Part shown: positions 25,253-43,614 of the stretch, piece by piece | Numbering within the stretch: position 1 is the first letter of the stretch | Layout of the letters: each line of letters opens with the position of its first letter | DNA from: an uncultured Bacilli bacterium | Lineage (GTDB): Bacteria; Bacillota_I; Bacilli_A; RF39; UBA660 | Assembly (NCBI GenBank): GCA_934091015.1 | Contig: CAKOKM010000002.1 | Span: forward strand, 1 to 51,258 | Direction: 5' to 3' | Length of the DNA stretch: 51,258 nt | Notes under the pieces: generated by a model | Seen by the model: the letters and a program-made list of their open reading frames with translations, nothing else | Told to the model about the DNA's origin: nothing | Databases searched by the model: none | Position numbers and translations under genes: made by a program

Positions 25253-25365
25253 AAAAAAGCTAGTGATTCCCACTAAGAGAGGAACTTAAAAAAGAAGTGA
25301 TTCCGGCTTAGACAGGAACTTAAAAAAGAAGCGATTCCGGCTTAAATAGGAACTTAAAAAAGAAA
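25253..25365 (+). ncRNA. toxI: type III antitoxin RNA: about three tandem 34-35-nt repeats (ToxI/antiQ-like)
   Basis: Repeats at 25253-25287 (35 nt, divergent), 25288-25321 and 25322-25355 (34 nt each), then a partial fourth. Each begins AAAAAAG and ends GGAACTT. Confidence 0.8.
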
Positions 25366-25406: not shown

Positions 25407-25922
25407 ATGGATAAGTTATTTTTAGTTAAGATAGATTATAAATATTGTAACTATTTAAGAAAGTTTGATAATAAAGTGCCATATAATATGGATAAAAAAG
25501 AATTGAGACCCTTTATTGGCGTTTTATTTGAAATAAATAAATGTAAATATTTTGCGCCATTATCAAGCCCAAAAGAAAAACATAAAACAATGAGAAGCAG
25601 TATTGATTTCTTAAAAATTGATAATGGTAATCTTGGAGCTATTAATTTTAATAATATGATACCAGTTGCTAATAGCAATATTATTTACTTAAATTTAAAT
25701 GAAAAACCAAAAGATAAGAAAGAAGCAAAATATTATAAATTACTTACTGAACAATTATTTTGGTTAAATCGTAATGATGTAAAAGTATTTAAAAGATCAA
25801 GAAATTTATATGATAAATATAAAAATAAAGATTTAAATGAGAATATAATTAAAAGATGCTGCAATTTCCCTCTACTTGAAGAAAAATGTAAAGAATATAA
25901 TAATATAGAACAAAAAGTTTAA
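25407..25922 (+). CDS. toxN: ToxN/AbiQ-family type III toxin endoribonuclease
   Basis: 171 aa. The blocks YLRKFDNKVP, FIGVLFEINKCKYFAPLSSPKEKH, LGAINFNNMIP and CCNFPLLEEKCKEY match my recollection of ToxN. RBS GGGGGA. Confidence 0.85.
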   Translation: MDKLFLVKIDYKYCNYLRKFDNKVPYNMDKKELRPFIGVLFEINKCKYFAPLSSPKEKHKTMRSSIDFLKIDNGNLGAINFNNMIPVANSNIIYLNLNEKPKDKKEAKYYKLLTEQLFWLNRNDVKVFKRSRNLYDKYKNKDLNENIIKRCCNFPLLEEKCKEYNNIEQKV

Positions 25923-25990: not shown

Positions 25991-28900
25991 ATGGATGATA
26001 AATTAATAAGATTCTTTAATAAAATTAATTTTGATGAGATAGATGATTTTGAGGGAGTAAAAGTTTCTAAAGTTGTTATAAATAAACAAAAAGAATCTTG
26101 GATAGTATATTTACAAAGTGATAAAGTTGTTAATCCAGAAGCAATGATAAAACTTATTAATAAAGCTAAAAATGGGATTGAAAATGTTAATACGATAGAT
26201 ATTAAGATAAATTATAGTAATATATTAGATGAAGATATTATTAAATATTTTAAATATTTTTTAGATCAAAAAGTTATTGATAATGTTTCTTTACAAAGTA
26301 TAATAAATAATGATTTTAAAGTAGAGAATAATGAAATAAGTGTAGAAGTTATTTCGAAGATGGAGGCTAATTTAATAAATTCTTTTAATGATGAATTTAG
26401 TAAGTATTTAAAGAATTTGGGATTATCTGAAGTTGAACTAGTTCCTATTATTAATGATGAAAAAAGAAAAGAAATAAAAGAAGAAATAGAAAACAGTAAA
26501 ACAGATATAATTGTTAATAAAGAACCTGAATTTAAAATTATTATGGGTGAAGAAATTAAATCTAAAAAGATTACTGAAATTAAAGATATTATTGGAGAAG
26601 AAAATAATGTTACAGTTGAAGCATATATTTTTGGAATAGAAGAATTTGTATCTAATAAGAGTAATTTTAAAATATTAACTTTGAAGATTAGTGATAAGAC
26701 TGATAGTATTTTAGCTAAAATATTTACAAGAGAAGAAGATGAATTTAATAAATATAAAGCTGGTTTAAAAGAAGGAAAATGGTATGCCTTTAGAGGGTAT
26801 GTTAAAAATGATACGTTTGCTAAGGATTTAGTGTTTAATGTAAGAGATATAGAGGAAATTCCTAGTAAAGATGATGAGTTTGTTGATGATGCTGAAGTTA
26901 AGAGAGTTGAATTACATGCTCATACAATGATGAGTCAAATGGATGGGGTTACTAAATTTGATTTAGATAAACATACATCAGAACTTGTTAGTAATGCGAT
27001 TAAATTTGGGTATAGAGGAGTTGCAATAACTGATCATGGTGGTTGTCAAGCATTCCCGATTTGTTATGAAATAATTAAAAATTATAATAAAGGAAAACCT
27101 AAAGAAGAACATTTTAAGGGGATTTATGGTACTGAACTTACATTAGTAGATGATTCGGCTGATATAACTTTTAGAGCTAAAGATGATGATTTAAGAAACA
27201 CTACTTATGTTGTATTTGATACAGAAACTACTGGTTTTAACGCTGGTGGTAAAGATCAAATGATTGAAATTGGTGCTGTAAAGATAGCAAATGGTGAAAT
27301 AATTGATAGATTTGATGAATTTATTAATCCAGGAAGACCACTTCCACAAAAGATAGTTGATTTAACATGTATTACTGATGATGATTTAGCTGGTGCCGAT
27401 AATGAAGAAAATGTTACTAAACGATTTTTAGAGTGGGCAGAAGGACTTCCTATGGTTGCTCATAACGCAAAATTCGATATGTCATTTGTTGATATGGCTT
27501 GTAAAAAGTATGGATTACCGGAGTTTAGTAATACCGTTATTGATACATTAGAATTATCAAGAGCGTTAGATCCTGATTTAACTAGACATAGTTTGTCAGC
27601 GTTAGTTAAAAGATATGAAGTCCCTTGGAATGAAGATGCACATCATAGAGCTGATTATGATGCTGAGGGAACGGCTTATGTATTTTGGAAAATGTTGGAT
27701 CGTGTTCCAAAAGATACATATAAAACTATAAAGGATTTAGATAATTTAGTTTCTAAAGAAAATTTATATAAGTTTGGAGCAACACATCATTTTAATGCTT
27801 TAGTTTTAAATCAAAAAGGATTAAAGAATTTATTTAAAATTGTTTCTTTAGCGAATACAACATATTACTTTAAGTGTCCTAGAATTCCGAGAAGTGTATT
27901 ACAGGAGTTAAGAGAAGGATTATTAATTGGTAGTGGATGCTTTGATTCAGAAATATTTAAAGAAGCAAGAAGAAAAGATAAAGAAGAATTAACTAATTTA
28001 ATTAATTTCTATGATTACGTTGAGGTGCAACCACCAGATGTTTATTCTCATTTAGTTGATACAGGAGATTTTTCTTCTAATGCAGAGTTAATTGGAAACA
28101 TTATGAAGGTAGTAGATGCAGTTAGAGACGCTGGCAAAATAATGGTGGCTACTGGGGATGTTCATCATTTTTATAAAGAAGATAAAATATTTAGACAAAT
28201 AATTCTTGATACAAAAGCCAATTTTGGAAAACATCATTTAGCTAAGTCTAGTATAAAAGAAATACCTTCACAACATTATAGAACAACAAATGAAATGCTA
28301 GAAAATTTTAACTTTTTAGATAAAGATGTTGCTTATGAAATTGTTGTTACTAACACAAATAAAATATGCGATATGATTGATGAAATAGAAGTTATTCCCG
28401 ATACTGGTGGAACACCATTTTCACCTAGAGTAAAAGCCGATGATGGTAAAACTTATTTAGATTGTCCTAGAGTTGTAACTGACTTAGTTTATGGTAGAGC
28501 AACTGATTGGTATGGAGATCCCCTTCCTTTATTAATTGAAGAACGTATCGCTAAAGAACTTTATGGAGAAACTGTTTATAAAGTTTGTCGTGAAAATTTA
28601 TTAAAAACACATAGTGAAGATGAACCTAATTTAAAAGAATTAATATTTAAAGATGTTCATGAAGTTATATTAAAGGGTGTAGATGCTGTTAAAGAGTTAG
28701 TTAGAAATAATATTAAAGAACATTTAGAAGAAGAAACTAGTGACGAAGAGATTGAACAAATGTTAAAGAAATCACTTGGTGGAGTAATTGGTGCAGGTTT
28801 CGATCCAATTTACTTAATTGCCCAAAGATTAGTTAAACACTCTAATGATGAAGGTTTCTTAGTTGGTTCAAGAGGTTCAGTAGGTTCATCATTTGTCGCA

Positions 28901-30574
28901 ACTATGATGGGTATTACTGAAGTTAATTCACTTGCGGCACATTACCGCTGTTTAAAATGTAAAACAAGTATTTTTAATGATGAAAATGGTAAACCACTTG
29001 GTGCTACTTATTCATGTGGTATTGATTTACCAGAAAAGAAATGTCCTAATTGCGGGGAAGATATGTATAGAGATGGACATGATATTCCATTTGAAACTTT
29101 CTTAGGATTCAATGCCGATAAAGTTCCAGATATCGACTTAAACTTTTCTGATTTAAATCAAGCATCTGCTCATGAATATACTAAAGTACTATTTGGTGTT
29201 GATAATGTATATCGTGCTGGTACTATTGGTACAGTTGCTGAAAAAACGGCTTTTGGTTTTGTAAAAGGTTATATGGAAGATAAAGGAATTATGATGCGTA
29301 CTCCGGAAATAGAACGTTTAGCTAAAGGCGTTACAGGAGTTAAGAGAACTACTGGACAACATCCCGGTGGAATTGTAGTTGTTCCTGATTATAAAGAAGT
29401 TTATGATTTTACTCCATTTCAATATCCAGCAGAAGATGTTAATAATGCTTGGAGAACAACTCACTTTGGATACCATTCAATTGAAGAATGTCTACTTAAA
29501 TTAGATATTTTAGGTCATACCGATCCAACTCAACTTAGAATTATTCAAGAACAAACGGGAATTGATGTTAGTAAAATACCTTTATCGGATCCTGAAACTA
29601 TGAGTATTTTCTCATCAACTAAAGCGTTAGGTGTAACTAACGAACAGATTTTAGCTCTTACTGGTACTTTAGGTATTCCGGAATTTGGTACTAACTTTAC
29701 CATTGGAATGGTTGATGAAATTAAGCCTAAAACATTTGCTGAACTTGTTAAAATTGCGGGACTATCACATGGGACTGATGTATGGCTTGGTAATGCGAGA
29801 GATTTAATTATTAATAATGTTGTTCCATTTAGTGAAGTTATTGGTTGTCGTGACGATATTATGATTTACTTAATGTATCATGGAGTAGAACCTATTAAAG
29901 CATTTAAAATAATGGAATTTGTACGTAAAGGTAAAGCAAGTAAACCAAAAGAAAAAGATACTTGGGAATCTTATAAAAAGATAATGCAAGACGCTAATAT
30001 TCCAGAATGGTTTATTGATTCATGTAATAAGATTAAATATATGTTCCCTAAAGCTCATGCTGCTGCATATGTAGTAAGTGCCTTTAGAATTGCTTGGATT
30101 AAAGTACATAAACCAGTATATTTTTATTCATCTTGGTTATCATGTAAAGCGACTGATTTTGATGTTGAAACGATGATGAAAGGATATGATGCAATTAAAG
30201 CAAGAGTAGAAGAAATTCAAAATAAAGGATTTAACGCTACTACTAAGGAACTAGGACTTCTTGAATGCTTAAAAGTATGTTTAGAAGCATCAGCTAGAGG
30301 AATAAAATTTGCTAAAATAGATTTATATAAAAGTGATTGGAAAGTATGGCAAGTTGCTGATGAACATACAATAATTCCATCTTTCTTATCAGTAGATGGA
30401 CTTGGCGAGACTGTTGCTAAGAATATTGTCAACGAAAGAAATAAAGGTAAGTTTGTAAGTATTGAAGACTTTCAATCAAGAGCAAAAGTATCTGGAACAA
30501 TTGTAGATAAGTTAAAAACAATTGATGTTTTAGAAAATATGCCGGAATCTTCACAATTAAGTTTATTTGATTAA
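25991..30574 (+). CDS. polC: DNA polymerase III PolC-type alpha subunit
   Basis: 1527 aa. Contains a PHP domain, the internal DnaQ-like exonuclease (VVFDTETTG, HNAKFD), a zinc-finger Cys pair and the polymerase core. Confidence 0.95.
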   Translation: MDDKLIRFFNKINFDEIDDFEGVKVSKVVINKQKESWIVYLQSDKVVNPEAMIKLINKAKNGIENVNTIDIKINYSNILDEDIIKYFKYFLDQKVIDNVSLQSIINNDFKVENNEISVEVISKMEANLINSFNDEFSKYLKNLGLSEVELVPIINDEKRKEIKEEIENSKTDIIVNKEPEFKIIMGEEIKSKKITEIKDIIGEENNVTVEAYIFGIEEFVSNKSNFKILTLKISDKTDSILAKIFTREEDEFNKYKAGLKEGKWYAFRGYVKNDTFAKDLVFNVRDIEEIPSKDDEFVDDAEVKRVELHAHTMMSQMDGVTKFDLDKHTSELVSNAIKFGYRGVAITDHGGCQAFPICYEIIKNYNKGKPKEEHFKGIYGTELTLVDDSADITFRAKDDDLRNTTYVVFDTETTGFNAGGKDQMIEIGAVKIANGEIIDRFDEFINPGRPLPQKIVDLTCITDDDLAGADNEENVTKRFLEWAEGLPMVAHNAKFDMSFVDMACKKYGLPEFSNTVIDTLELSRALDPDLTRHSLSALVKRYEVPWNEDAHHRADYDAEGTAYVFWKMLDRVPKDTYKTIKDLDNLVSKENLYKFGATHHFNALVLNQKGLKNLFKIVSLANTTYYFKCPRIPRSVLQELREGLLIGSGCFDSEIFKEARRKDKEELTNLINFYDYVEVQPPDVYSHLVDTGDFSSNAELIGNIMKVVDAVRDAGKIMVATGDVHHFYKEDKIFRQIILDTKANFGKHHLAKSSIKEIPSQHYRTTNEMLENFNFLDKDVAYEIVVTNTNKICDMIDEIEVIPDTGGTPFSPRVKADDGKTYLDCPRVVTDLVYGRATDWYGDPLPLLIEERIAKELYGETVYKVCRENLLKTHSEDEPNLKELIFKDVHEVILKGVDAVKELVRNNIKEHLEEETSDEEIEQMLKKSLGGVIGAGFDPIYLIAQRLVKHSNDEGFLVGSRGSVGSSFVATMMGITEVNSLAAHYRCLKCKTSIFNDENGKPLGATYSCGIDLPEKKCPNCGEDMYRDGHDIPFETFLGFNADKVPDIDLNFSDLNQASAHEYTKVLFGVDNVYRAGTIGTVAEKTAFGFVKGYMEDKGIMMRTPEIERLAKGVTGVKRTTGQHPGGIVVVPDYKEVYDFTPFQYPAEDVNNAWRTTHFGYHSIEECLLKLDILGHTDPTQLRIIQEQTGIDVSKIPLSDPETMSIFSSTKALGVTNEQILALTGTLGIPEFGTNFTIGMVDEIKPKTFAELVKIAGLSHGTDVWLGNARDLIINNVVPFSEVIGCRDDIMIYLMYHGVEPIKAFKIMEFVRKGKASKPKEKDTWESYKKIMQDANIPEWFIDSCNKIKYMFPKAHAAAYVVSAFRIAWIKVHKPVYFYSSWLSCKATDFDVETMMKGYDAIKARVEEIQNKGFNATTKELGLLECLKVCLEASARGIKFAKIDLYKSDWKVWQVADEHTIIPSFLSVDGLGETVAKNIVNERNKGKFVSIEDFQSRAKVSGTIVDKLKTIDVLENMPESSQLSLFD

Positions 30575-30599
30575 AAAAATATCGTGATTAAAAAAATAT

Positions 30600-30663: not shown

Positions 30664-33048
30664 ATGAACACTGAAATGAATAAAAAGAAAATTATTATGT
30701 TATTAATCATGTTTGGATTAGTTTTATCAATAATTATGGGAGTAACTTTTTCTTATTTGTTACCAATAATTAATAATGTAGAAACAGATTCAACAGTTGT
30801 ATTTAATGCAGGAATTATATCAGCAACATATGAAAATGGAAGTAATCAAATAGTTTCAAGTGAAGTACTACCTGGCTGGTCAGAAACAAAAACATTTAGT
30901 TTAACAGCAGTAAATTCAACAACAATTAGAAAAGCTGGAGCTATGAATTATTCACTAAAACTAATAGTAGATTCAAATACATTTAGTGATAACTCAATAG
31001 CAGTATCATTAAAAAGTACAAATACATCAAATAATGGAACCCCAGCAGAGATGATATCAGGAACATTGTTAAGTGGACCAAGTGAAGTAAGTTTAGGATT
31101 TGGATCATTTGATGCAACACAGGAAATAGGAGAAGAAGGAGTAACACATGATTTTGAGTTAAAACTTTCATTTCCAGAACAATATAGAAGTCAAAATAAT
31201 GACATGGATAAATCCATTGCAGCACATGTAGTAGTAGAAAGAGCAAATGATTTAGGAAACTTAACAATAGTAGATAATTATGAAAGTTATAATAAAACAA
31301 TAAATATAGAAAAGAATAAAGAAGTAAATTTATTAAGTTTATATAGTTATCCAATAAAGAAAACATATTCAATCATAAGTGGAGAAGGAACAATTAATTC
31401 AAATAAATTAACATTAAAAAGTGATGAAATGAAAGTATCAATAAATTATCCATCAGTATCAGATACAATAGCAGATTTAGATAAAGAAACAAATGGATTA
31501 GAAGAAGATGATACAGCAGATAAAAACTTAAGATATGTAGGTGCAAGTCCAAAAAATTACATTACTTTTAATGATGAAACATGGAGAATAATAGGCATAT
31601 TTAATGTATTTAATGTTGAAACTAATACAACTGAAAAACTTGTAAAAATAGTAAGAAATGATTCACTAGGAGATTATTCATGGGATAGTTCAGATTCATC
31701 AAAAAATAATGGCTACGGAATCAATGAATGGAGTCAAGCCGATTTAATGAACGAATTAAATACTGATTATATAAATCCAAATCCAACAAGTGAAACAACA
31801 GAATGGTTTAATGGACGAAATAATGCAAAAAATGGATCATACAATTATAGTAATAATATGAAAAGTACTTCAATGGATAAAATAGCCAAAGTAAGATGGA
31901 ACTTAGGCGGTTATTCAACATCACAAGTTACTGCGTTAAATATGTATAATGCTGAAAGAGGAACATTACATATAAGTAATCCATCAGATGAAACAACAAG
32001 AACCAACACATGGGATGGAAAAATAGCATTAATATATCCAAGTGATTATGGCTATGCCTCAACGGATACAACATGTAGAGGAGATTTAATGTCATCTGAT
32101 TCTAATTATAAAGGATATTGTAAAAATGAAAACTGGTTATTTAACGGTGCATATCAATGGACTTTGTCCCCTAGTTCTGGCAATGCGAGTAATGTGTTCT
32201 ATGTCGATTCGGACGGGTATGTCGGCAGCGGCAGTGCGATCAACGCTATTGGTGTGCGTCCGGCCCTTTTCTTAAAATCTGATGTAGTTGTAACAAGTGG
32301 AACTGGTGATGAAAAAGATCCATATAAAATTTCTTCACGAGCATCATTTGCAAATGACGCATGGGAAACAATAGCAAATAACGTTAAATCAGAAAAATCA
32401 TATTTATATAATATCGGCGATGAAAAAGAAGTAGAAATAGGTGGAACAAATTATACTGTACGTGTTGCCAATAACACCACACCAAGTGATTGTAATAAAG
32501 ATGATTTTTCCCAGACAGCCTGTGGATTTGTAGTAGAGTTTGTTGATATTGTAGAAAATAGAAAAATGAATAGTACTGATACCAATGTAGGTGGCTGGCC
32601 AGCAACAGCAATGAGAACATACTTAAACGACGAGTTTTATAATAGTTTACCAGAAGATTTAAGAAATGTGATAGCAGATACCAAAGTAATATCAGGACAT
32701 GGAAAAAGTGATACAAGTAATTTTCCATCAACTGATAAAATATATTTATTAAGTGGACATGAAATATATGAAGATGCATCACCAACAACGTCATCATTAT
32801 CAGCAAGAGATACAGCCTATAATAATACAAGACAATTAGATTATTATAAGAATAAAGGAGTAACAACAAGAAGCTATTTAGAAACTAGAAAGAAACCACT
32901 AGGCTCTAGTTCTTATGATTGGTGGTGGCTGCGCGCGGCTAATTCCAGCAGTGACGATAATTTCCTAAGTGTTGGTAGCGACGGCGACTGGAACATCATT
33001 AATGCTAGCGATTCAAGTGGCGTTTCTCCAGCTTTCCGTATCGGATAA
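30664..33048 (+). CDS. secreted protein with two C-terminal-type 'W-x-L ... G-V-[RS]-P-A' modules
   Basis: ATG lies 7 nt after AGGTGG. N-terminal signal/anchor (KKKIIMLLIMFGLVLSIIMGVTFSY, like a SipW-type signal). The two homologous module ends fall at 32158-32271 and 32920-33045. Confidence 0.8.
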   Translation: MNTEMNKKKIIMLLIMFGLVLSIIMGVTFSYLLPIINNVETDSTVVFNAGIISATYENGSNQIVSSEVLPGWSETKTFSLTAVNSTTIRKAGAMNYSLKLIVDSNTFSDNSIAVSLKSTNTSNNGTPAEMISGTLLSGPSEVSLGFGSFDATQEIGEEGVTHDFELKLSFPEQYRSQNNDMDKSIAAHVVVERANDLGNLTIVDNYESYNKTINIEKNKEVNLLSLYSYPIKKTYSIISGEGTINSNKLTLKSDEMKVSINYPSVSDTIADLDKETNGLEEDDTADKNLRYVGASPKNYITFNDETWRIIGIFNVFNVETNTTEKLVKIVRNDSLGDYSWDSSDSSKNNGYGINEWSQADLMNELNTDYINPNPTSETTEWFNGRNNAKNGSYNYSNNMKSTSMDKIAKVRWNLGGYSTSQVTALNMYNAERGTLHISNPSDETTRTNTWDGKIALIYPSDYGYASTDTTCRGDLMSSDSNYKGYCKNENWLFNGAYQWTLSPSSGNASNVFYVDSDGYVGSGSAINAIGVRPALFLKSDVVVTSGTGDEKDPYKISSRASFANDAWETIANNVKSEKSYLYNIGDEKEVEIGGTNYTVRVANNTTPSDCNKDDFSQTACGFVVEFVDIVENRKMNSTDTNVGGWPATAMRTYLNDEFYNSLPEDLRNVIADTKVISGHGKSDTSNFPSTDKIYLLSGHEIYEDASPTTSSLSARDTAYNNTRQLDYYKNKGVTTRSYLETRKKPLGSSSYDWWWLRAANSSSDDNFLSVGSDGDWNIINASDSSGVSPAFRIG
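32158..32271 (+). other. adenine-depleted NNY-codon island 1 (DGR variable-region-like)
   Basis: 38 codons with no third-position A. Only 17 A in total, all in NNY codons. Confidence 0.5.
32920..33045 (+). other. adenine-depleted NNY-codon island 2 at the C-terminus (DGR variable-region-like)
   Basis: 42 codons. Third-position A appears in only four, all 4-fold-degenerate (cta, tca, cca, gga). Includes the run aat tcc agc agt gac gat aat. Confidence 0.5.
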
Positions 33049-33096
33049 TAATGTAAACTAAATGTAAAGCAAGAAATAATATAATTAAGCAGGGAT

Positions 33097-33207
33097 AGGA
33101 AAATCGTTTCCTAGAGGGCCGTTCCTGCGAGCGAAAGCGAGTAAAATAGACGGCCCATAAGATAAAAAAATAAATCCCATCTGATTGACGTAAGGAAATC
33201 AGATGGG
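33097..33207 (+). other. cluster of three stable hairpins in the 3' region of the secreted-protein gene
   Basis: AGGAAA-atcg-TTTCCT (33097-33112); GGGCCGT-n27-ACGGCCC with an internal GAAA loop (33116-33156); CCCATCTGATT-n10-AATCAGATGGG (33176-33207). Confidence 0.5.
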
Positions 33208-33429
33208 TACATAAAGTATTATGAAAGATAAATATAATAAAATAATAAGAAATGTTTATAAAGATAGTTTTAATATAAAGTGTGGCTCTAGAATTTCTAG
33301 TGGGGAGTTTTTATAAGAAAACTTCGTGTTTTAGTGGGGAGATATTTTAATAGATATCTTTCTTTTTTTGGTTAAATAATCGTTATTAATTAAATCTAGG
33401 TTAAAACATATAATTAATTGGTGATGCAT

Positions 33430-33663
33430 ATGCTAGATATAATTAATAGTGCATTAAGAAATAATAATTATTATATTTGTTTGTATAAAAATAATATTTA
33501 TCTTTATAACTATATAGATATATTGTCTTTTGATAATAATTTGATAATGATTAAATTTGATAATTTTAATTTAAAAATTAAAGGAAGCAATATGTTAATA
33601 AAACATATGCAAGAAAAAGAATTAATTATTTCTGGTAATATTGTAGGAGTATCCTATGAATAA
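33430..33663 (+). CDS. yqfC: sporulation protein YqfC
   Basis: Small ORF immediately upstream of and overlapping yqfD. Start placed 5 nt after GGTGA. Confidence 0.7.
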   Translation: MLDIINSALRNNNYYICLYKNNIYLYNYIDILSFDNNLIMIKFDNFNLKIKGSNMLIKHMQEKELIISGNIVGVSYE

Positions 33664-34792
33664 AATTATTAAGATAGAAGTTAATGATAATATTAATAGA
33701 TTTATAAATAAATGTATTAATAATAAAATATATATTACAAATATAAATTATATTAATGATAATAAAATTACTTGTGATATTAATAGTGTTGATTATAAAA
33801 AAGTTAAAAAAATAAATTATTATTCTAAGATTAAAATTATAGATTATATTGGGTTTTATAAAATTAAAGAATTAATAAAAAATAATATATTTTTAATAAT
33901 TATATTTATGTTGTCTTTTGGATTAATGGATATAATAACTAGTTATATAGTAGATATAGAGGTTATTCATTCTTCCTCTAGTATTCGTAAGTTAATATAT
34001 AAAGAATTAGATAATAATAATATTAAGAAATATTCTTTTGCTTATGATTTTAATGAGTTAGATAAAATTCAAAAAAATATTTTAAATAATAATAAAGATA
34101 GATTAGAATGGATAAGTATTACTAGAGATGGTATGAAGTATATTATTAGATGTGAAGAAAGAAAGATTAAAAATATTAACAAAGAAACTGGATATCGTCA
34201 TGTTATAGCTAAAAAAGATGCTTATATTACTAAGATAATTTCTACTAAGGGTGAAAATGTTGTTAGAAGTGGGGAATATGTTAAAAAAGGTGATTTATTA
34301 ATTAGTGGAGAAATTAAGTTATATGATGCAGTTAAGGGAGATACTTTAGCAACTGGATCAGTTTATGGTAATGTTTGGTATAATGTTAATATAAGTGTTC
34401 CAAAAGAAGAACCTAGAAGAGAGTTTACTGGTAAAAAAAGATTTAATTTAAATATTAATGATAAAATATTTCTTAAAAATAAATATAAGTATTTTACTCA
34501 AGATAATATTAGAGAAATTAAGTTTTTAGGATTAAAAATTAAAATTTATAAAGAGAAAGAATATGTTAATAAAAAGTATATTTTAAGTGATGAAGAGATT
34601 GAAAATTTAGTAAATAATAAGATAAAAGAAAAATTTAATAATATTGGAACAATTAGTAGTCAAAAAGTTTTGAAAAAAGAGATAAATAATAGTACAATAG
34701 ATTATAGAGTATTTGTTATTTGTAATGAACTTATTAGTGAATATAAATACTATGAAAAGAGTGATGCTAATGATACCCAAAGCAGCAATTGA
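33656..34792 (+). CDS. yqfD: sporulation protein YqfD (stage IV)
   Basis: 378 aa with one central TM segment. yqfC-yqfD synteny upstream of ybeY-dgkA-cdd-era-recO. Confidence 0.75.
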   Translation: MNKIIKIEVNDNINRFINKCINNKIYITNINYINDNKITCDINSVDYKKVKKINYYSKIKIIDYIGFYKIKELIKNNIFLIIIFMLSFGLMDIITSYIVDIEVIHSSSSIRKLIYKELDNNNIKKYSFAYDFNELDKIQKNILNNNKDRLEWISITRDGMKYIIRCEERKIKNINKETGYRHVIAKKDAYITKIISTKGENVVRSGEYVKKGDLLISGEIKLYDAVKGDTLATGSVYGNVWYNVNISVPKEEPRREFTGKKRFNLNINDKIFLKNKYKYFTQDNIREIKFLGLKIKIYKEKEYVNKKYILSDEEIENLVNNKIKEKFNNIGTISSQKVLKKEINNSTIDYRVFVICNELISEYKYYEKSDANDTQSSN

Positions 34793-39852: not shown

Positions 39853-42800
39853 ATGAGTAAGAAAAAGAAATTATTTAGTGCGGTTGTACTAACTATAGGA
39901 TTATTTATAGTTTTATTAGGAAGTATGATTAGCTCTAATAATTATAAAAATACAAATGTAAGTGATAATGAAAATAATGAAATAGCAGCTGGTACTGGTT
40001 GTATTAGTGTTATTAATAAAAATAGCGGCACTTACTCAATTACAGGAAGTGGCCTTGATATTATTAATTGTTGCACTAATAAAAAAGGATGCAAATATTA
40101 TGTTTCTGTAAGTAATGGAAGTTATTTTGGATTAAATGGAAAATGTACTACAAATCAAGGAACAGATACACGTTCATCAACAATCTTTCCTAGTTCAGCA
40201 GGTTTAACATTTACTGTTTGTGGACCAACAACTGTAGCTAGCAGGTATATTTCTGCATATACAAATGGAAATGTAATTGTTAAATGTTCGGGAAGTGGTT
40301 GTGAAAGTTATACTTCTAATAAATGTAATGTTGGAAAGGGAAATTGTACGTTTACTGGAACACCAAATTCTGGATACAATGTAAGTAGTAGTAGCAGTTG
40401 TACAAATCCACAATCCACACTTAGTTATACTGTTAATTCTAAAAATACTAGTAATGTTTATTTTTATTCATGTGCAAAACAAACAGCTACTACTAAAGCA
40501 AAATCTGTTTATGCTAAGAATCGTAGCGGAAATGATAAGCTAAATGTTACATGCTATAGTTCTGCTGGAGCATGTGTAAATAGTTCGACATGTAATGTTT
40601 CAAAAGGACTATGCACTTTTACGGCAACTGCACAATCTAATTATAATGTAAGTCGAAATTCTGATTGTTCTTATAAACAAACTAAATTAGAAGATTCAGT
40701 TTCAATTGGATCTAGTGATATTAACTATTATGCTTGTCCAGTAAATAATCAAAGTGGAGGCACAACATCAACTTGTAAAATAAATTTAAACGTAAATAGT
40801 GGTGAAACATACTCCATTTTTGATGGTGGTGAATTTAAATTTTCAACTGGAAAATCAACAAGTTATGATTGTAAATCACAAAATTGTTATGCACAAATTA
40901 CTTCATACTCCGATTCAAATAAATATAAAGGTTTAGCTGGAGATGGAGATTGTTCAACTGGTGTTAGAACAACAGGAACGAGAGTGGATTGTACAAATAA
41001 TTCTGTTAGTGTAAAAGCATGCTATGATAGTCCAAAAAATAATCAATTAATAATAAGATCAATAAATGGTGGCGTAGCACGTATATCGAAGATTACGTCC
41101 GGTGAAGGTACAATAGAGCCAGGAGGACAAACAGCTGAATGTACACAGGAACCATGTGAATTTCTTGTTATTGCAGAAGAAAATTATGGATTTGGATATG
41201 GTTTAAATGGTTCGACCTGTACTAATAATTTACGAGAAGGAACTGTTACTGTATCAAAAAGTGATACTGTTATATATGTGTGCCCAAAAAATTCTGGTAG
41301 TTCATCAGGAGGAACATATACACCTATACCCGAACCGTCGGTAGAAGATAATAAAACAGTAACTAAAAAGCAATTTTTCTATGCAAATGGAACTCAATAT
41401 CAAGGTAATTCAATAAAATGTGGAGATAAAGTATATGTAACAACATGTACTGCAGGAGATAATGCAATATGTAATGTAACATCAATAAATTCAACATCAG
41501 TAAGTACAACAACACAAATATATGAAAAAGATTTAGTAACAAACTTACAAGATACAGGATGTTATCAAAAAATCGAAAGATATATAACAGAAAAAACAAA
41601 TTACTATTCAAATAGAGAATTAAGCAAAAATGCAACTGAAATAGGATGTGGATCAGTAATAACATTCAAACAAGAGATAAAAAATGCATGTGTAAATAAG
41701 TCATGTGAAGTAGAATATAATGGTAAAATAGTATATATAAATATAGATTATATAACAAGTGATAAACCTGCATGTCAAAATCAAAATACTAGTGGTGGAA
41801 ATACAGGAGGAAGTACAAGCAGTGATACAAACACATGTGTAACTTCTAAAAGTTTAACAGGAGTAAAAGGAGAAGTAACAGTATCAATATGTAAAAAAGA
41901 TGATACAGAAGATACAAAAAATAAGATAGTAACATGTGCAGAAGATTATACATATCAATATAGATTAACAAAAGATACATGTAAAGATAGTAATTCGGAA
42001 AATTGTTATAAAGAATATATATATACATGTAATTATATAAAAAGACCAGGAATAAATGCATCAGCAGGAACAATAAAATCAAATGGTAAAGGAACAATAA
42101 CAGTAACAGGAATGCCATATGGAAATATTGGAATCTTAGGATATCATGTATCAAATGGAGAAGAACCAACAGTAAATTCAGGATGGAGTACATTTAATGC
42201 TATAAATAATACATTTAGTATTGAAAGATCAGCCGGAACATATTTCATATGGGCAATAAATAATAAACGTAGAATTAGTTATCCGGTCTTAGCAAAAGTA
42301 TATGATTCCGATTTAAGTACAACATTATCATCATTTAGTTTAAAAGATGAAAACGGAAATAATATAAATGTAACTATGAATTCATTAGATAACACAGTTG
42401 GATATAATGAACCAGTTAAAGATTCAAATTATGCATTGCTAACAAATAATTTATTAGCAGATTCAATAGGTGGATTTGATAAATTAACAACATCATATGA
42501 ATTATCAGTAACATCAAATAAAATAGCCATTTATGCAACCTTAACAAGTAATGATGCATCATATGTATCAGGATATGAACCAAGAACGATAGATTTAGAA
42601 TACGGAAGAAATGTAGCTCTAATAAAAATAGTTAATAAAAATGGAAAAGAAAGATGTTATACATTTATAATAAATAGAGTAGATGATCGAAATAGTTCTA
42701 ATTTACTTAAAAATATAAAATTAAGTAGAGGAAGTATTGATTTTGATCCATATACAACAAATTATGATGTAAAGATAAGTAGATTTACTAAAAAAGTAAG

Positions 42801-43614
42801 TATAAATGCTGAATTAGATAGTAGTACATCAACATTTATCTCAGGATATGAACCAAGAGAGGTAGAGATAACAGAAGATAGACAATCAGTAGTACTTAAA
42901 GTAATAAGTGAGGCAGGAAGTATCAGAAGTTATGTAATAACCTTTACAAGAAATGGTGAAGAAAAAGATAATGTAAATAGTACATATTTAAGTAGTTTAA
43001 CAGTACCGGGAACAATGCTTGGATTTGATAAAGAAACATATGATTATACAATAACAGTGCCATATGAAACCGAAGATATTCCAGTATATGCCTTTGCTGA
43101 AGATGAAAATGCGACAGTAAATGTAGGAAATAATACCGGATTAAAAGTAGGAAATAATCTAATTCAAATAGAAGTAAAAAATAATAATAAAACAAGAATC
43201 TATAGTTTACATGTAATAAGAAAAGAAAGTGGATTAGATATATCAAATTCAGCAAGATTAGGAACACTTAGTATAAAGAATTATAATATAGAATTTAATC
43301 CAGATAAGTTAGATTATGAAGTAAAAATAAAAAGAGAAAAGACATTATTAATAAGTGCAACACCTGAATCAAATAGAGCAGATATCTATATGTATGGAAA
43401 TAATGATTTAACCGGATTTAGTACAGTAAGAGTAAAAGTAATAGCTGAGAATGGATTAACAAATATATATTCAATAGATATTCAAAAAGATGCATATAAT
43501 AAGAAAATTGAGATAATTGCAAGTGTAGCAGGAGTTAGTACTGTAATAATAGTTGGAGTTATAGTTTACCTTAAAAATAAACATAACAAGAGAAAAGAAT
43601 ATTTAGAAGGATGA
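39853..43614 (+). CDS. large surface protein: Cys-rich N-terminal repeats, four cadherin-like beta-sandwich repeats, C-terminal TM anchor
   Basis: Signal/anchor at the N-terminus and repeated C..G.CTFT.T...YNVS modules. Four repeats of about 90 aa end in IYS(L/I).(V/I). The C-terminus is a TM segment followed by a KNKHNKRK tail. Confidence 0.8.
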   Translation: MSKKKKLFSAVVLTIGLFIVLLGSMISSNNYKNTNVSDNENNEIAAGTGCISVINKNSGTYSITGSGLDIINCCTNKKGCKYYVSVSNGSYFGLNGKCTTNQGTDTRSSTIFPSSAGLTFTVCGPTTVASRYISAYTNGNVIVKCSGSGCESYTSNKCNVGKGNCTFTGTPNSGYNVSSSSSCTNPQSTLSYTVNSKNTSNVYFYSCAKQTATTKAKSVYAKNRSGNDKLNVTCYSSAGACVNSSTCNVSKGLCTFTATAQSNYNVSRNSDCSYKQTKLEDSVSIGSSDINYYACPVNNQSGGTTSTCKINLNVNSGETYSIFDGGEFKFSTGKSTSYDCKSQNCYAQITSYSDSNKYKGLAGDGDCSTGVRTTGTRVDCTNNSVSVKACYDSPKNNQLIIRSINGGVARISKITSGEGTIEPGGQTAECTQEPCEFLVIAEENYGFGYGLNGSTCTNNLREGTVTVSKSDTVIYVCPKNSGSSSGGTYTPIPEPSVEDNKTVTKKQFFYANGTQYQGNSIKCGDKVYVTTCTAGDNAICNVTSINSTSVSTTTQIYEKDLVTNLQDTGCYQKIERYITEKTNYYSNRELSKNATEIGCGSVITFKQEIKNACVNKSCEVEYNGKIVYINIDYITSDKPACQNQNTSGGNTGGSTSSDTNTCVTSKSLTGVKGEVTVSICKKDDTEDTKNKIVTCAEDYTYQYRLTKDTCKDSNSENCYKEYIYTCNYIKRPGINASAGTIKSNGKGTITVTGMPYGNIGILGYHVSNGEEPTVNSGWSTFNAINNTFSIERSAGTYFIWAINNKRRISYPVLAKVYDSDLSTTLSSFSLKDENGNNINVTMNSLDNTVGYNEPVKDSNYALLTNNLLADSIGGFDKLTTSYELSVTSNKIAIYATLTSNDASYVSGYEPRTIDLEYGRNVALIKIVNKNGKERCYTFIINRVDDRNSSNLLKNIKLSRGSIDFDPYTTNYDVKISRFTKKVSINAELDSSTSTFISGYEPREVEITEDRQSVVLKVISEAGSIRSYVITFTRNGEEKDNVNSTYLSSLTVPGTMLGFDKETYDYTITVPYETEDIPVYAFAEDENATVNVGNNTGLKVGNNLIQIEVKNNNKTRIYSLHVIRKESGLDISNSARLGTLSIKNYNIEFNPDKLDYEVKIKREKTLLISATPESNRADIYMYGNNDLTGFSTVRVKVIAENGLTNIYSIDIQKDAYNKKIEIIASVAGVSTVIIVGVIVYLKNKHNKRKEYLEG

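Follow-up and report, generated by a model that had tools for sequence, protein, structure and literature searches.

A probable orphaned variable region of a diversity-generating retroelement at the end of a DUF6273 protein gene in an uncultured gut Bacilli bacterium

The target gene and its two adenine-poor islands

We analysed a 51,258-nt stretch of DNA from an uncultured Bacilli bacterium (contig CAKOKM010000002.1, forward strand; "the window"). It is a segment of a low-GC Firmicute/Bacilli chromosome (24.7% GC), and its sequence is also present in contigs from Hadza gut metagenomes. Downstream of polC (25991-30574) the window carries a gene for a large protein with DUF6273 modules, hereafter the target gene, which is followed by yabP/yqfD, ybeY, era and recO. 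The gene ends in a stretch of unusual codons, called island 2, and a similar stretch, island 1, lies further upstream within it. We interpret island 2 as a variable region (VR2) that was written by a diversity-generating retroelement (DGR) and that has probably lost its template repeat (TR2) in this strain.

The mechanically determined open reading frame (ORF) of the target gene starts at 30598; the called gene and its homologues start at M23 (MNT...), which makes 30664 the likely start. The protein consists of an N-terminal hydrophobic signal or anchor and two DUF6273 modules. Pfam matched DUF6273 (E = 2e-25) in two stretches of the protein, the better one spanning residues 649-815, and gave a weak camelysin-type match at the N-terminus; the NCBIfam scan of the protein returned no match. 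The family is large in uncultured gut Bacilli and in 'Tenericutes' metagenome-assembled genomes, and relatives keep the gene order, with the target gene between polC and yabP/yqfD. The target is probably a cellular, secreted surface protein of a human-gut Bacilli lineage.

Island 2 comprises codons 775-816 of the ORF (32920-33045, with a TAA stop at 33046-33048) and encodes the peptide WWWLRAANSSSDDNFLSVGSDGDWNIINASDSSGVSPAFRIG. It has about 50% GC in a genome of about 25% GC. The third codon position is an adenine in only four of its 42 codons (CTA, TCA, CCA and GGA); among the other codons of the ORF this holds for 375 of 731 (Fisher p = 3e-8). Conversely, the third position is G or C (GC3) in 21/42 codons of the island and in 94/731 of the remainder (p = 3e-8), and total adenine amounts to 20.6% against 43%. 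Island 1 (32152-32280) has the same signature, with a third-position adenine in 3 of 43 codons. Peptide, codons, coordinates and the similarity of the two islands had been described in an earlier sequence-only reading of this DNA, and all were found to be as described; its remark that only four codons of island 2 end in adenine is now backed by the exact test.

A null expectation for island 2 was obtained by resampling synonymous codons from the codon usage of the window while keeping the amino acids fixed. Under this null, 6.9 +/- 1.6 GC3 codons and 34.2 +/- 2.5 adenines were expected, compared with 21 and 26 observed, respectively. Because synonymous resampling fails to reproduce the composition, the anomaly lies in the choice of codons and not in the amino-acid content. 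When GC content was scored in 120-nt segments across the 51 kb, only four stretches reached at least 44%, namely two tRNA genes and the two islands. Island 2 is thus GC-enriched besides being adenine-depleted (e.g. CTG CGC GCG). Avoidance of adenine alone would yield T-rich codons in an AT-rich genome, and the extra GC enrichment is not explained by it.

An alignment of 20 homologues was well conserved except for two blocks, in which an invariant scaffold is interleaved with hypervariable positions. The blocks coincide with the islands and read QWTLSPxSGNxxxVFxVxSxGxVxxxxAxxxxxVRPALFLKS for island 1 and WWLRSAxxxxxxxFxxVTSxGxWxxxxAxxxYGFSPAFRIG for island 2. In each of them the scaffold is kept while about 20 positions are hypervariable, among homologues from strains in which polC and yqfD have a nucleotide identity of 95.5-96.8%. 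The comparison of the window with three relatives (L005, L007 and L008) gave 76-80% nucleotide identity for the target gene, against 95.5-96.8% for the flanking polC and yqfD, and the number of DUF6273 modules per protein is two or three among strains (P0002-P0004, 1044-1059 aa). The target gene is mosaic and fast-evolving as a whole. The third module in L007 bears a VR2 peptide identical to that of L005.

Variable regions and templates in relatives

At the DNA level, the VR2 sequences of the window, L018, L020 and L008 share their scaffold codons, and the variable codons are of the form NNY with the third base kept. The scaffold in the window includes CTG, GAC-GGC and GGCGTTTCT, and the scaffold stretch TGGTGGCTGCGCGCGGCT ... 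GGCGTTTCTCCAGATTTC. A TR2 sequence was deduced from the VR2s of four strains, translated (WWLRAANSNNNNNFLNVNNNGNWNNNNANNTNGVSPAFRIG) and used as a protein query. The query retrieved six short ORFs of 45-69 aa (e.g. ...NWWLRAANSNNNNNFLNVNNSGDWNNNNANNTNGFAPDFLFQWDK and ...WWLRAANSNNNNNFLNVNNSGDWNNNNANNTNGFAPDF), and the exact deduced pattern had no match in IMG/VR. The contigs that carry P0297 (L026-L029) come from pig and other gut metagenomes. In these contigs, the 3' portion of a homologous target gene with VR2 and stop codon is followed by a 257-nt spacer, TR2, and about 250 nt of further spacer up to a terminator-like hairpin.

The two copies of the repeat of about 120 nt on the same contig differ almost exclusively at template adenines: VR2 and TR2 mismatch at 20 such positions in L026 and at 18 in L027-L029, with one mismatch elsewhere. 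L026 and L027 have differing VR2s and TR2s that differ by one base. Among six VR2s, 36 of the 37 columns with a TR2 adenine are variable, as opposed to 22 of the 77 other columns (p = 3e-13). At the variable positions TR2 has many AAY (Asn) codons, as in L029 (...AAT TCC AAT AAT AAC AAT AAT TTC CTA AAT GTC AAT AAC ... AAC AAC AAT AAT GCT AAC AAT ACC AAT...), and its scaffold codons TGG TGG TTG CGC GCG GCT are free of adenine. VR2 would be adenine-poor and GC-rich because the scaffold codons of the template are adenine-free and the template adenines become mostly other bases. Judged from these sequences, island 2 belongs to a genuine family of DGR variable regions.

Island 1 could be matched to a template of its own. 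TR1 was predicted from the island 1 alignment with adenines restored, and then used as a search pattern. A metagenome scan found the predicted TR1 in two gut metagenome contigs; the exact TR1-specific pattern had no matches in IMG/VR or in the GTDB representative genomes, and a pattern of the VR1 scaffold with masked (N) positions recovered four VR1s in target genes and no template. When VR1 of the window is compared with TR1 of L013, L015 and L016, 20 of 108 nt differ, and 18 of these differences fall on template adenines. Nine VR1 copies of this type agree in almost all of their scaffold codons, even at synonymous sites, and their variable codons are nearly all NNY with the third base kept, a pattern that is as expected if the adenines of AAY codons are mutagenised.

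TR1 is part of a cassette that consists of ORF79, TR1, ORF122, bAvd and a reverse transcriptase (RT) of 350 aa in L013; L015 and L016 were reached via the RT protein. The RT adjoins TR1, has IGNMTSQ and YMDD motifs and matches Pfam RVT_1. The ORF of 114 aa in front of it matched NF033474 (DivGenRetAVD) with E = 7.5e-9, which is below the curated cutoff, and PF22296 (bAvd) weakly. The cassette is chromosomal, since it adjoins rimP-nusA-infB in L015, and VR1 itself is remote from it. The TR1-type RT cassettes and related ones (L013-L017, L021, L024 and L025) had no TR2 or island 2-like sequence in their neighbourhood.

Two further loci of the TR1 type were noticed. In L014 (378-566), next to nusB/xseA, the tail that normally comes after a variable region (...FLKSDVVIAEGTGESIEDAYTLE) is joined in frame to a sequence like TR1, with no Avd or RT in between; the arrangement looks like a product of recombination between template and variable region. 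L017, a 126-kb contig, carries a decayed TR1 cassette (340-2544) with indels in the template and an RT ORF of 320 aa that matches only 60% of the intact RT. The adjacent VR1-type target is still there.

A template like TR2 was also present in a more distant organism (L030-L033), in a canonical cassette of a DUF6273 target, ORF179, the TR2-like template and an RT of 380 aa; the 179-aa ORF had no family match. The TR2 unit of L026, made up of 5' flank, template and some 170 nt of spacer, can be aligned with the template unit of L030, while comparison of the TR2 spacer with the TR1 spacer gave no significant similarity. The RTs of L030 and of the TR1 cassette are only 25% identical. As the TR2 unit aligns with the L030 unit and not with the TR1 spacer, and as the two RTs are so dissimilar, the sequences suggest that TR2 belongs to a second, unrelated DGR and is not a second template of the TR1 enzyme. 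A single RT for both templates, which we had considered, was not supported by the spacers. No RT was seen on L026-L029, which are short contigs that end before any RT could appear; the partner RT of TR2 is presumably of the L030 type.

The sequence-only reading had proposed that island 2 is a DGR variable region and that the two islands require two templates. Both proposals hold up, the former because TR2 stands behind homologous VR2s in close relatives with adenine-specific mismatches, and the latter because TR1, the template of island 1, belongs to a distinct bAvd-RT cassette. The strain comparison that it called for showed the concentration of VR2 variation in the TR2-adenine columns. Its search for a template and an RT succeeded in part: TR2 units and RT cassettes exist in relatives, and neither is found within the 51-kb window.

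The spacer behind the gene and the empty template site

Scanning both strands of the window for a template-like repeat of island 2, with scores for identity and for mismatches at candidate adenines, gave a best match of 46% identity, which was island 1 itself. A direct-repeat finder returned only AT-rich chance repeats, and no RT was detected in Pfam scans of 23 of the larger ORFs. With 79% identity, the window can be aligned to L026 over VR2 and the spacer (32923-33246), and gaps stand opposite the TR2 block of L026. The match is clear through hairpin C (about 33214; see Table 1), fades in the AT-rich stretch beyond it, and is lost after about 33246. Only short motifs resembling junctions are left there, at 33294-33307 (TTTCTAGTGGGGAG) and at 33323-33351 (TTCGTGTTTTAGTGGGGAGATATTTTAAT), and their similarity to the TR2 unit is not statistically significant. 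In L005, L007 and L008 the whole spacer is missing, and stop codon and terminator are separated by 62-100 nt.

Three independent contigs, L018, L019 and L020, end 143-159 nt past the stop codon of the target gene, L018 and L019 within or just past hairpin C and L020 at a distance equivalent to it. These contig ends suggest an assembly breakpoint caused by presence and absence of TR2 among co-occurring strains.

All relatives that keep the spacer have a conserved element of about 170 nt past the stop, which is composed of a post-stop box, AATGTAAACTnTATGTAAAG, and three hairpins, A, B and C. The box is kept in L018, L019, L020 and L026-L029, and partly in L030. In the same-contig pairs, the homology of variable region and template stops at ...TTTC, so that the last codons of the gene and the box lie beyond it; this region is a candidate for a boundary like the initiation of mutagenic homing (IMH) site. 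The whole intergenic stretch of 297 nt folds better than shuffled sequences (z = -5.3). At gathering thresholds, Rfam identified only two tRNAs in the window, and a permissive scan of 32900-33450 gave nothing.

Hairpin B had been noted in the sequence-only reading as a GC stem with an inner GAAA element 67 nt past the stop, and is present as stated. Its 7-bp outer stem encloses 27 nt with a CGAGC-GAAA-GCGAG mini-hairpin at about 33127-33140, where the GAAA caps a mini-stem of only 5 pairs with two tandem G.A mismatches. Two adjacent pairs of the outer stem show compensatory changes, GT/AC in the window and L020 and AC/GT in L018, L019, L026 and L028, in two haplotypes only. The inner core CGA(G/A)CGAAAG(C/T)GAG is kept as far as L030, with a switch from G-C to A-T. 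No equivalent element follows TR2 in L026.

Published DGR target hairpins have a GC-rich stem of 7-10 bp and a 4-nt GRNA loop (sense strand), and are located 4-34 bp past the variable region (Guo et al., 2011, PMC3240598). The structure is required and not the sequence of the stem, and the distance is flexible (PMC3240598). Hairpin B shares the GC-rich stem and the GAAA with them and shows some signs of structural conservation, and falls outside the published definition in its architecture and in its distance from the variable region, as it begins about 79 nt past the end of TR2 homology.

It is possible that hairpin B is the functional equivalent of the target hairpin or cruciform that promotes retrohoming in phage BPP-1, and would serve target recognition, and we lean somewhat against it. 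The element is found downstream of VR2 in all relatives with a spacer, including the TR2 carriers, and not only the compensatory pairs but also the GRNA-type loop of the core are preserved, the latter up to L030 in spite of the low RT identity. Against this stand the deviating architecture, with the GAAA on a mismatched mini-stem, and the modest stability of the hairpin as DNA (-7.7 kcal/mol, z = -1.9, 11 of 200 shuffles as stable). Moreover, the covariation is confined to two haplotypes, no Rfam family matches, and L008, which has neither the spacer nor hairpin B, has a VR2 that nevertheless differs from the others in the manner of a DGR. The distance also speaks against equivalence, but hairpins at some distance may be usual in these elements, since the target of the TR1 cassette has its own GC-rich hairpin, a stronger one with a loop of 4 nt, about 70 nt past the variable region.

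Such hairpins were seen in targets that adjoin TR1-type cassettes, at 1200-1245 in L016 and 400-440 in L024. They have a conserved AGGG loop of 4 nt on differing stems (GGCAGGT/ACCTGCC versus GGGT/ACCC inside GTGCCT/AGGCAC). VR1 of the window sits inside the gene, and no obvious GC-rich hairpin was noticed downstream of it.

Table 1. Coordinates of the target gene, its variable regions and the elements behind it, in positions of the window.
Feature	Coordinates	Strand	Basis
Target gene, probably secreted protein, 794 aa	30664-33048	+	ORF list, Pfam DUF6273, homologue starts, synteny
VR1, core of island 1, C-terminus of first DUF6273 module	32164-32267	+	Match to TR1
VR2, within island 2, from TGGTGG to CCAGCTTTC, C-terminus of second DUF6273 module	32923-33036	+	Composition, alignment, TR2 homology
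3' gene end past template homology, CGTATCGGATAA, then post-stop box AATGTAAACTAAATGTAAAG; candidate IMH-like boundary	33037-33069	+	Same-contig VR/TR pairs
Hairpin A, TAGGAAA-ATCG-TTTCCTA (AGGAA/TTCCT), AT-rich stem	33096-33113	+	Regional fold, consensus fold of 6 sequences
Hairpin B, outer stem GGGCCGT/ACGGCCC	33116-33156	+	Folds, compensatory changes
Hairpin C, CCCATCTGATT/AATCAGATGGG, 11-bp stem, end of clearly conserved VR2-to-TR2 spacer	33176-33207	+	Folds, relatives
AT-rich stretch at the TR2 position of relatives, no TR2	33215-33339	+	Global alignment to L026
Terminator-like hairpin and T-run, AGATATTTTAATAGATATC TTTCTTTTTTT	33340-33369	+	Intergenic comparison; also in L008

The terminator-like hairpin precedes yabP (33418). 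It was spotted on visual inspection and in a comparison with L008, a relative missing the entire spacer; a terminator scan over 32800-33700 flagged nothing. Elsewhere in the window, three direct repeats with a 34-nt spacing (25254-25364) lie in front of a gene for a ToxN toxin (25407-25922, Pfam ToxN_toxin, E = 5e-48). The arrangement resembles a type III toxin-antitoxin locus with an array of ToxI-like RNA, and is present in L001 and L008 and not in L005-L007. Two large proteins with cadherin-like domains are encoded downstream (39853-43614 and 45671-47071). The first differs in length among strains (1253, 1157, 1100, 1041 and 980 aa), so that it, too, is a fast-evolving surface protein. In neither gene was a DGR-type GC-rich island seen.

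Origin and present state of the second variable region

According to our preferred interpretation, TR2, with its many AAY codons, would be transcribed in this lineage, and a DGR RT would copy it into cDNA, placing random bases opposite template adenines. The cDNA would then take the place of the final ~114 nt in the second DUF6273 module, so that about 20 surface residues are re-randomised while the scaffold is kept. VR1 would be written likewise from TR1 in the separate bAvd-RT cassette elsewhere on the chromosome. In the present strain, the spacer with the hairpin is retained, and TR2 would have been lost. We assign a probability of roughly 0.62 to this account, in which VR2 is a product of DGR retrohoming whose template is gone. 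VR2 is here most likely an orphaned and currently static record of the last retrohoming event.

Several observations weigh against this account. The nearest recovered template, TR2 of L029, differs from VR2 of the window at 25 of 114 nt, and only 15 of the mismatches are at template adenines. Most of the 10 others recur in L018, L020 and L008, which is why we assume a template variant of the sub-lineage that encodes ...NGVSPDF (as in P0298 and P0301); this variant, now lost, would have been the actual template, and was deduced and not observed. L027-L029 share one VR2 although TR2 is present. The GTDB representative genomes with VR1 were without TR1, be it by loss during binning or by real absence. 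Only 51 kb of the strain's own genome are available, and no TR2 or RT comes from them. A deletion scar of TR2 was sought, and a candidate at 33283-33351 is put forward as no more than a suggestion, since the local alignment was not significant (35 of 500 shuffles scored as well); loss of TR2, as opposed to its never having been gained, is suggested by parsimony. Finally, over up to 22 kb the locus of the clone shows no difference among four samples (100% identity), but this identity reflects a single clone (0 single-nucleotide polymorphisms in 12 kb) and is weak evidence for stasis.

Alternatively, VR2 may still be an active DGR target, served in trans by a TR2, with or without its cognate RT, elsewhere on the chromosome of about 1.2 Mb. 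We think this unlikely. DGR targets more than 100 kb from the RT have been documented (PMC5758913), and VR1 is itself remote from its cassette. AT pressure has not worn down the strong GC3 signal, suggesting that writing was recent, and the conserved spacer with its hairpins is still in place. However, TR2 lies directly behind VR2 in L026-L029, and exactly this site is empty in the window. Furthermore, no protein variant of at least 90% identity is on record, the 90% cluster having a single member, and the locus did not vary among the four samples. An origin of island 2 outside any DGR, as a horizontally acquired or gene-converted segment of higher GC or by ordinary diversifying selection, would fit the mosaic gene (76-80% identity beside neighbours at 95.5-96.8%, two to three modules), the GC enrichment and the scattered non-adenine point changes by which islands differ within one species cluster, but is very improbable, because recombination and selection predict neither the variation at template adenines (36/37 versus 22/77 columns), nor the kept third base of variable codons, nor TR2 units with adenine-only mismatches next to homologous VR2s.

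Orphaning by template loss can be extended to a broader and more tentative picture, which we consider rather unlikely as a whole. The two variable regions of one protein in this gut bacterium with a reduced genome would be written by two unrelated DGRs, one with TR1 in the bAvd-RT cassette near rimP-nusA, and the other with a stand-alone TR2 about 257 nt behind the gene and a spacer homologous to that of another RT clade (25% identical). The TR2 unit would be polymorphic among strains of about 96% identity in flanking genes, being present in L026-L029, excised in the window, and excised together with the whole spacer in L005, L007 and L008. Loss of the template might then act as a switch at the population level, fixing one binding site in its present form and leaving the other open to rewriting.

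A model of the second module (residues 575-816, window 32320-33045; AlphaFold with a 32-sequence alignment) had a confidence (pLDDT) of 94. It matched phage DUF6273, tail-fibre and receptor-binding proteins with E-values down to 2e-15. Among solved structures in the PDB, C-type lectins were matched weakly (E 0.3-2), and the best match was to one domain of the IgA peptidase from Thomasclavelia ramosa (9qa6, E = 4.8e-6, TM 0.54); a PDB sequence search with the module gave no meaningful match. The IgA peptidase match hints at host glycoproteins or immunoglobulin as possible ligands of the modelled DUF6273 module. In the literature, DUF6273 has been described as a target domain of DGRs, C-type-lectin-like and with the variable region at its C-terminus (PMC11792537, PMC10743442), and the system is in this sense of a known kind.

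The prototype DGR of BPP-1 (mtd with its variable region, TR, avd and brt) has in common with the present system the adenine-specific transfer from an AAY-rich template, a variable region at the extreme C-terminus of a C-type-lectin-like ligand-binding domain, an Avd and a YMDD RT as partners (here for TR1), and a structured GC-rich element downstream of the variable region. BPP-1 is a phage, whereas the system described here is located on the chromosome of an uncultured low-GC gut Bacilli bacterium and its target is a DUF6273 protein and not Mtd. The BPP-1 hairpin is a simple 8-bp stem with a GAAA loop right after the variable region, unlike hairpin B, and template and RT are absent from the window. 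The DUF6273 targets of gut phages and prophages (Faecalibacterium, PMC11792537; 'tentaclins', PMC10743442) share the Pfam domain, the C-terminal variable region and the C-type-lectin-like fold. The present target differs from them in being cellular and probably secreted, in having two or three tandem modules, in its location between polC and sporulation genes, and in that two modules of one protein have variable regions with a template each.

Cellular DGRs of Treponema denticola and others of 'lineage 4' (PMC5758913, PMC4891356) are likewise chromosomal, act in trans on targets far from the RT, and have target numbers that are unstable between close relatives; they use one TR for several targets, whereas here one gene has two variable regions and two templates. 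DGRs with multiple templates have been documented but are not common (PMC6642488). Another genome in which several templates serve different variable regions is that of Stenotrophomonas sp. SKA14, which has two TRs and six variable regions (PMC6642488). Its TRs are in one cassette and its variable regions in separate ORFs, in contrast to the stand-alone TR2 behind its variable region, whose spacer resembles that of an RT clade other than the one in the TR1 cassette.

While the system itself is thus of a well-known kind, one protein with two variable regions and two templates, a stand-alone TR2 directly behind the variable region, and the probable loss of this template are what distinguishes the present case. 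It provides a concrete example of two templates for two sites in one protein, and adds a multi-DUF6273 cellular surface protein from an uncultured human-gut Bacilli lineage to the targets of DGRs. Adenine-poor, GC-rich codon islands in very AT-rich genomes can flag DGR variable regions from the sequence itself, even if template and RT are not on the contig; standard DGR finders start from RT and TR, and would miss this locus. The window is likely to be a case of a variable region orphaned by template loss, and bears on how often 'hypervariable' sites in metagenomes are still being rewritten.

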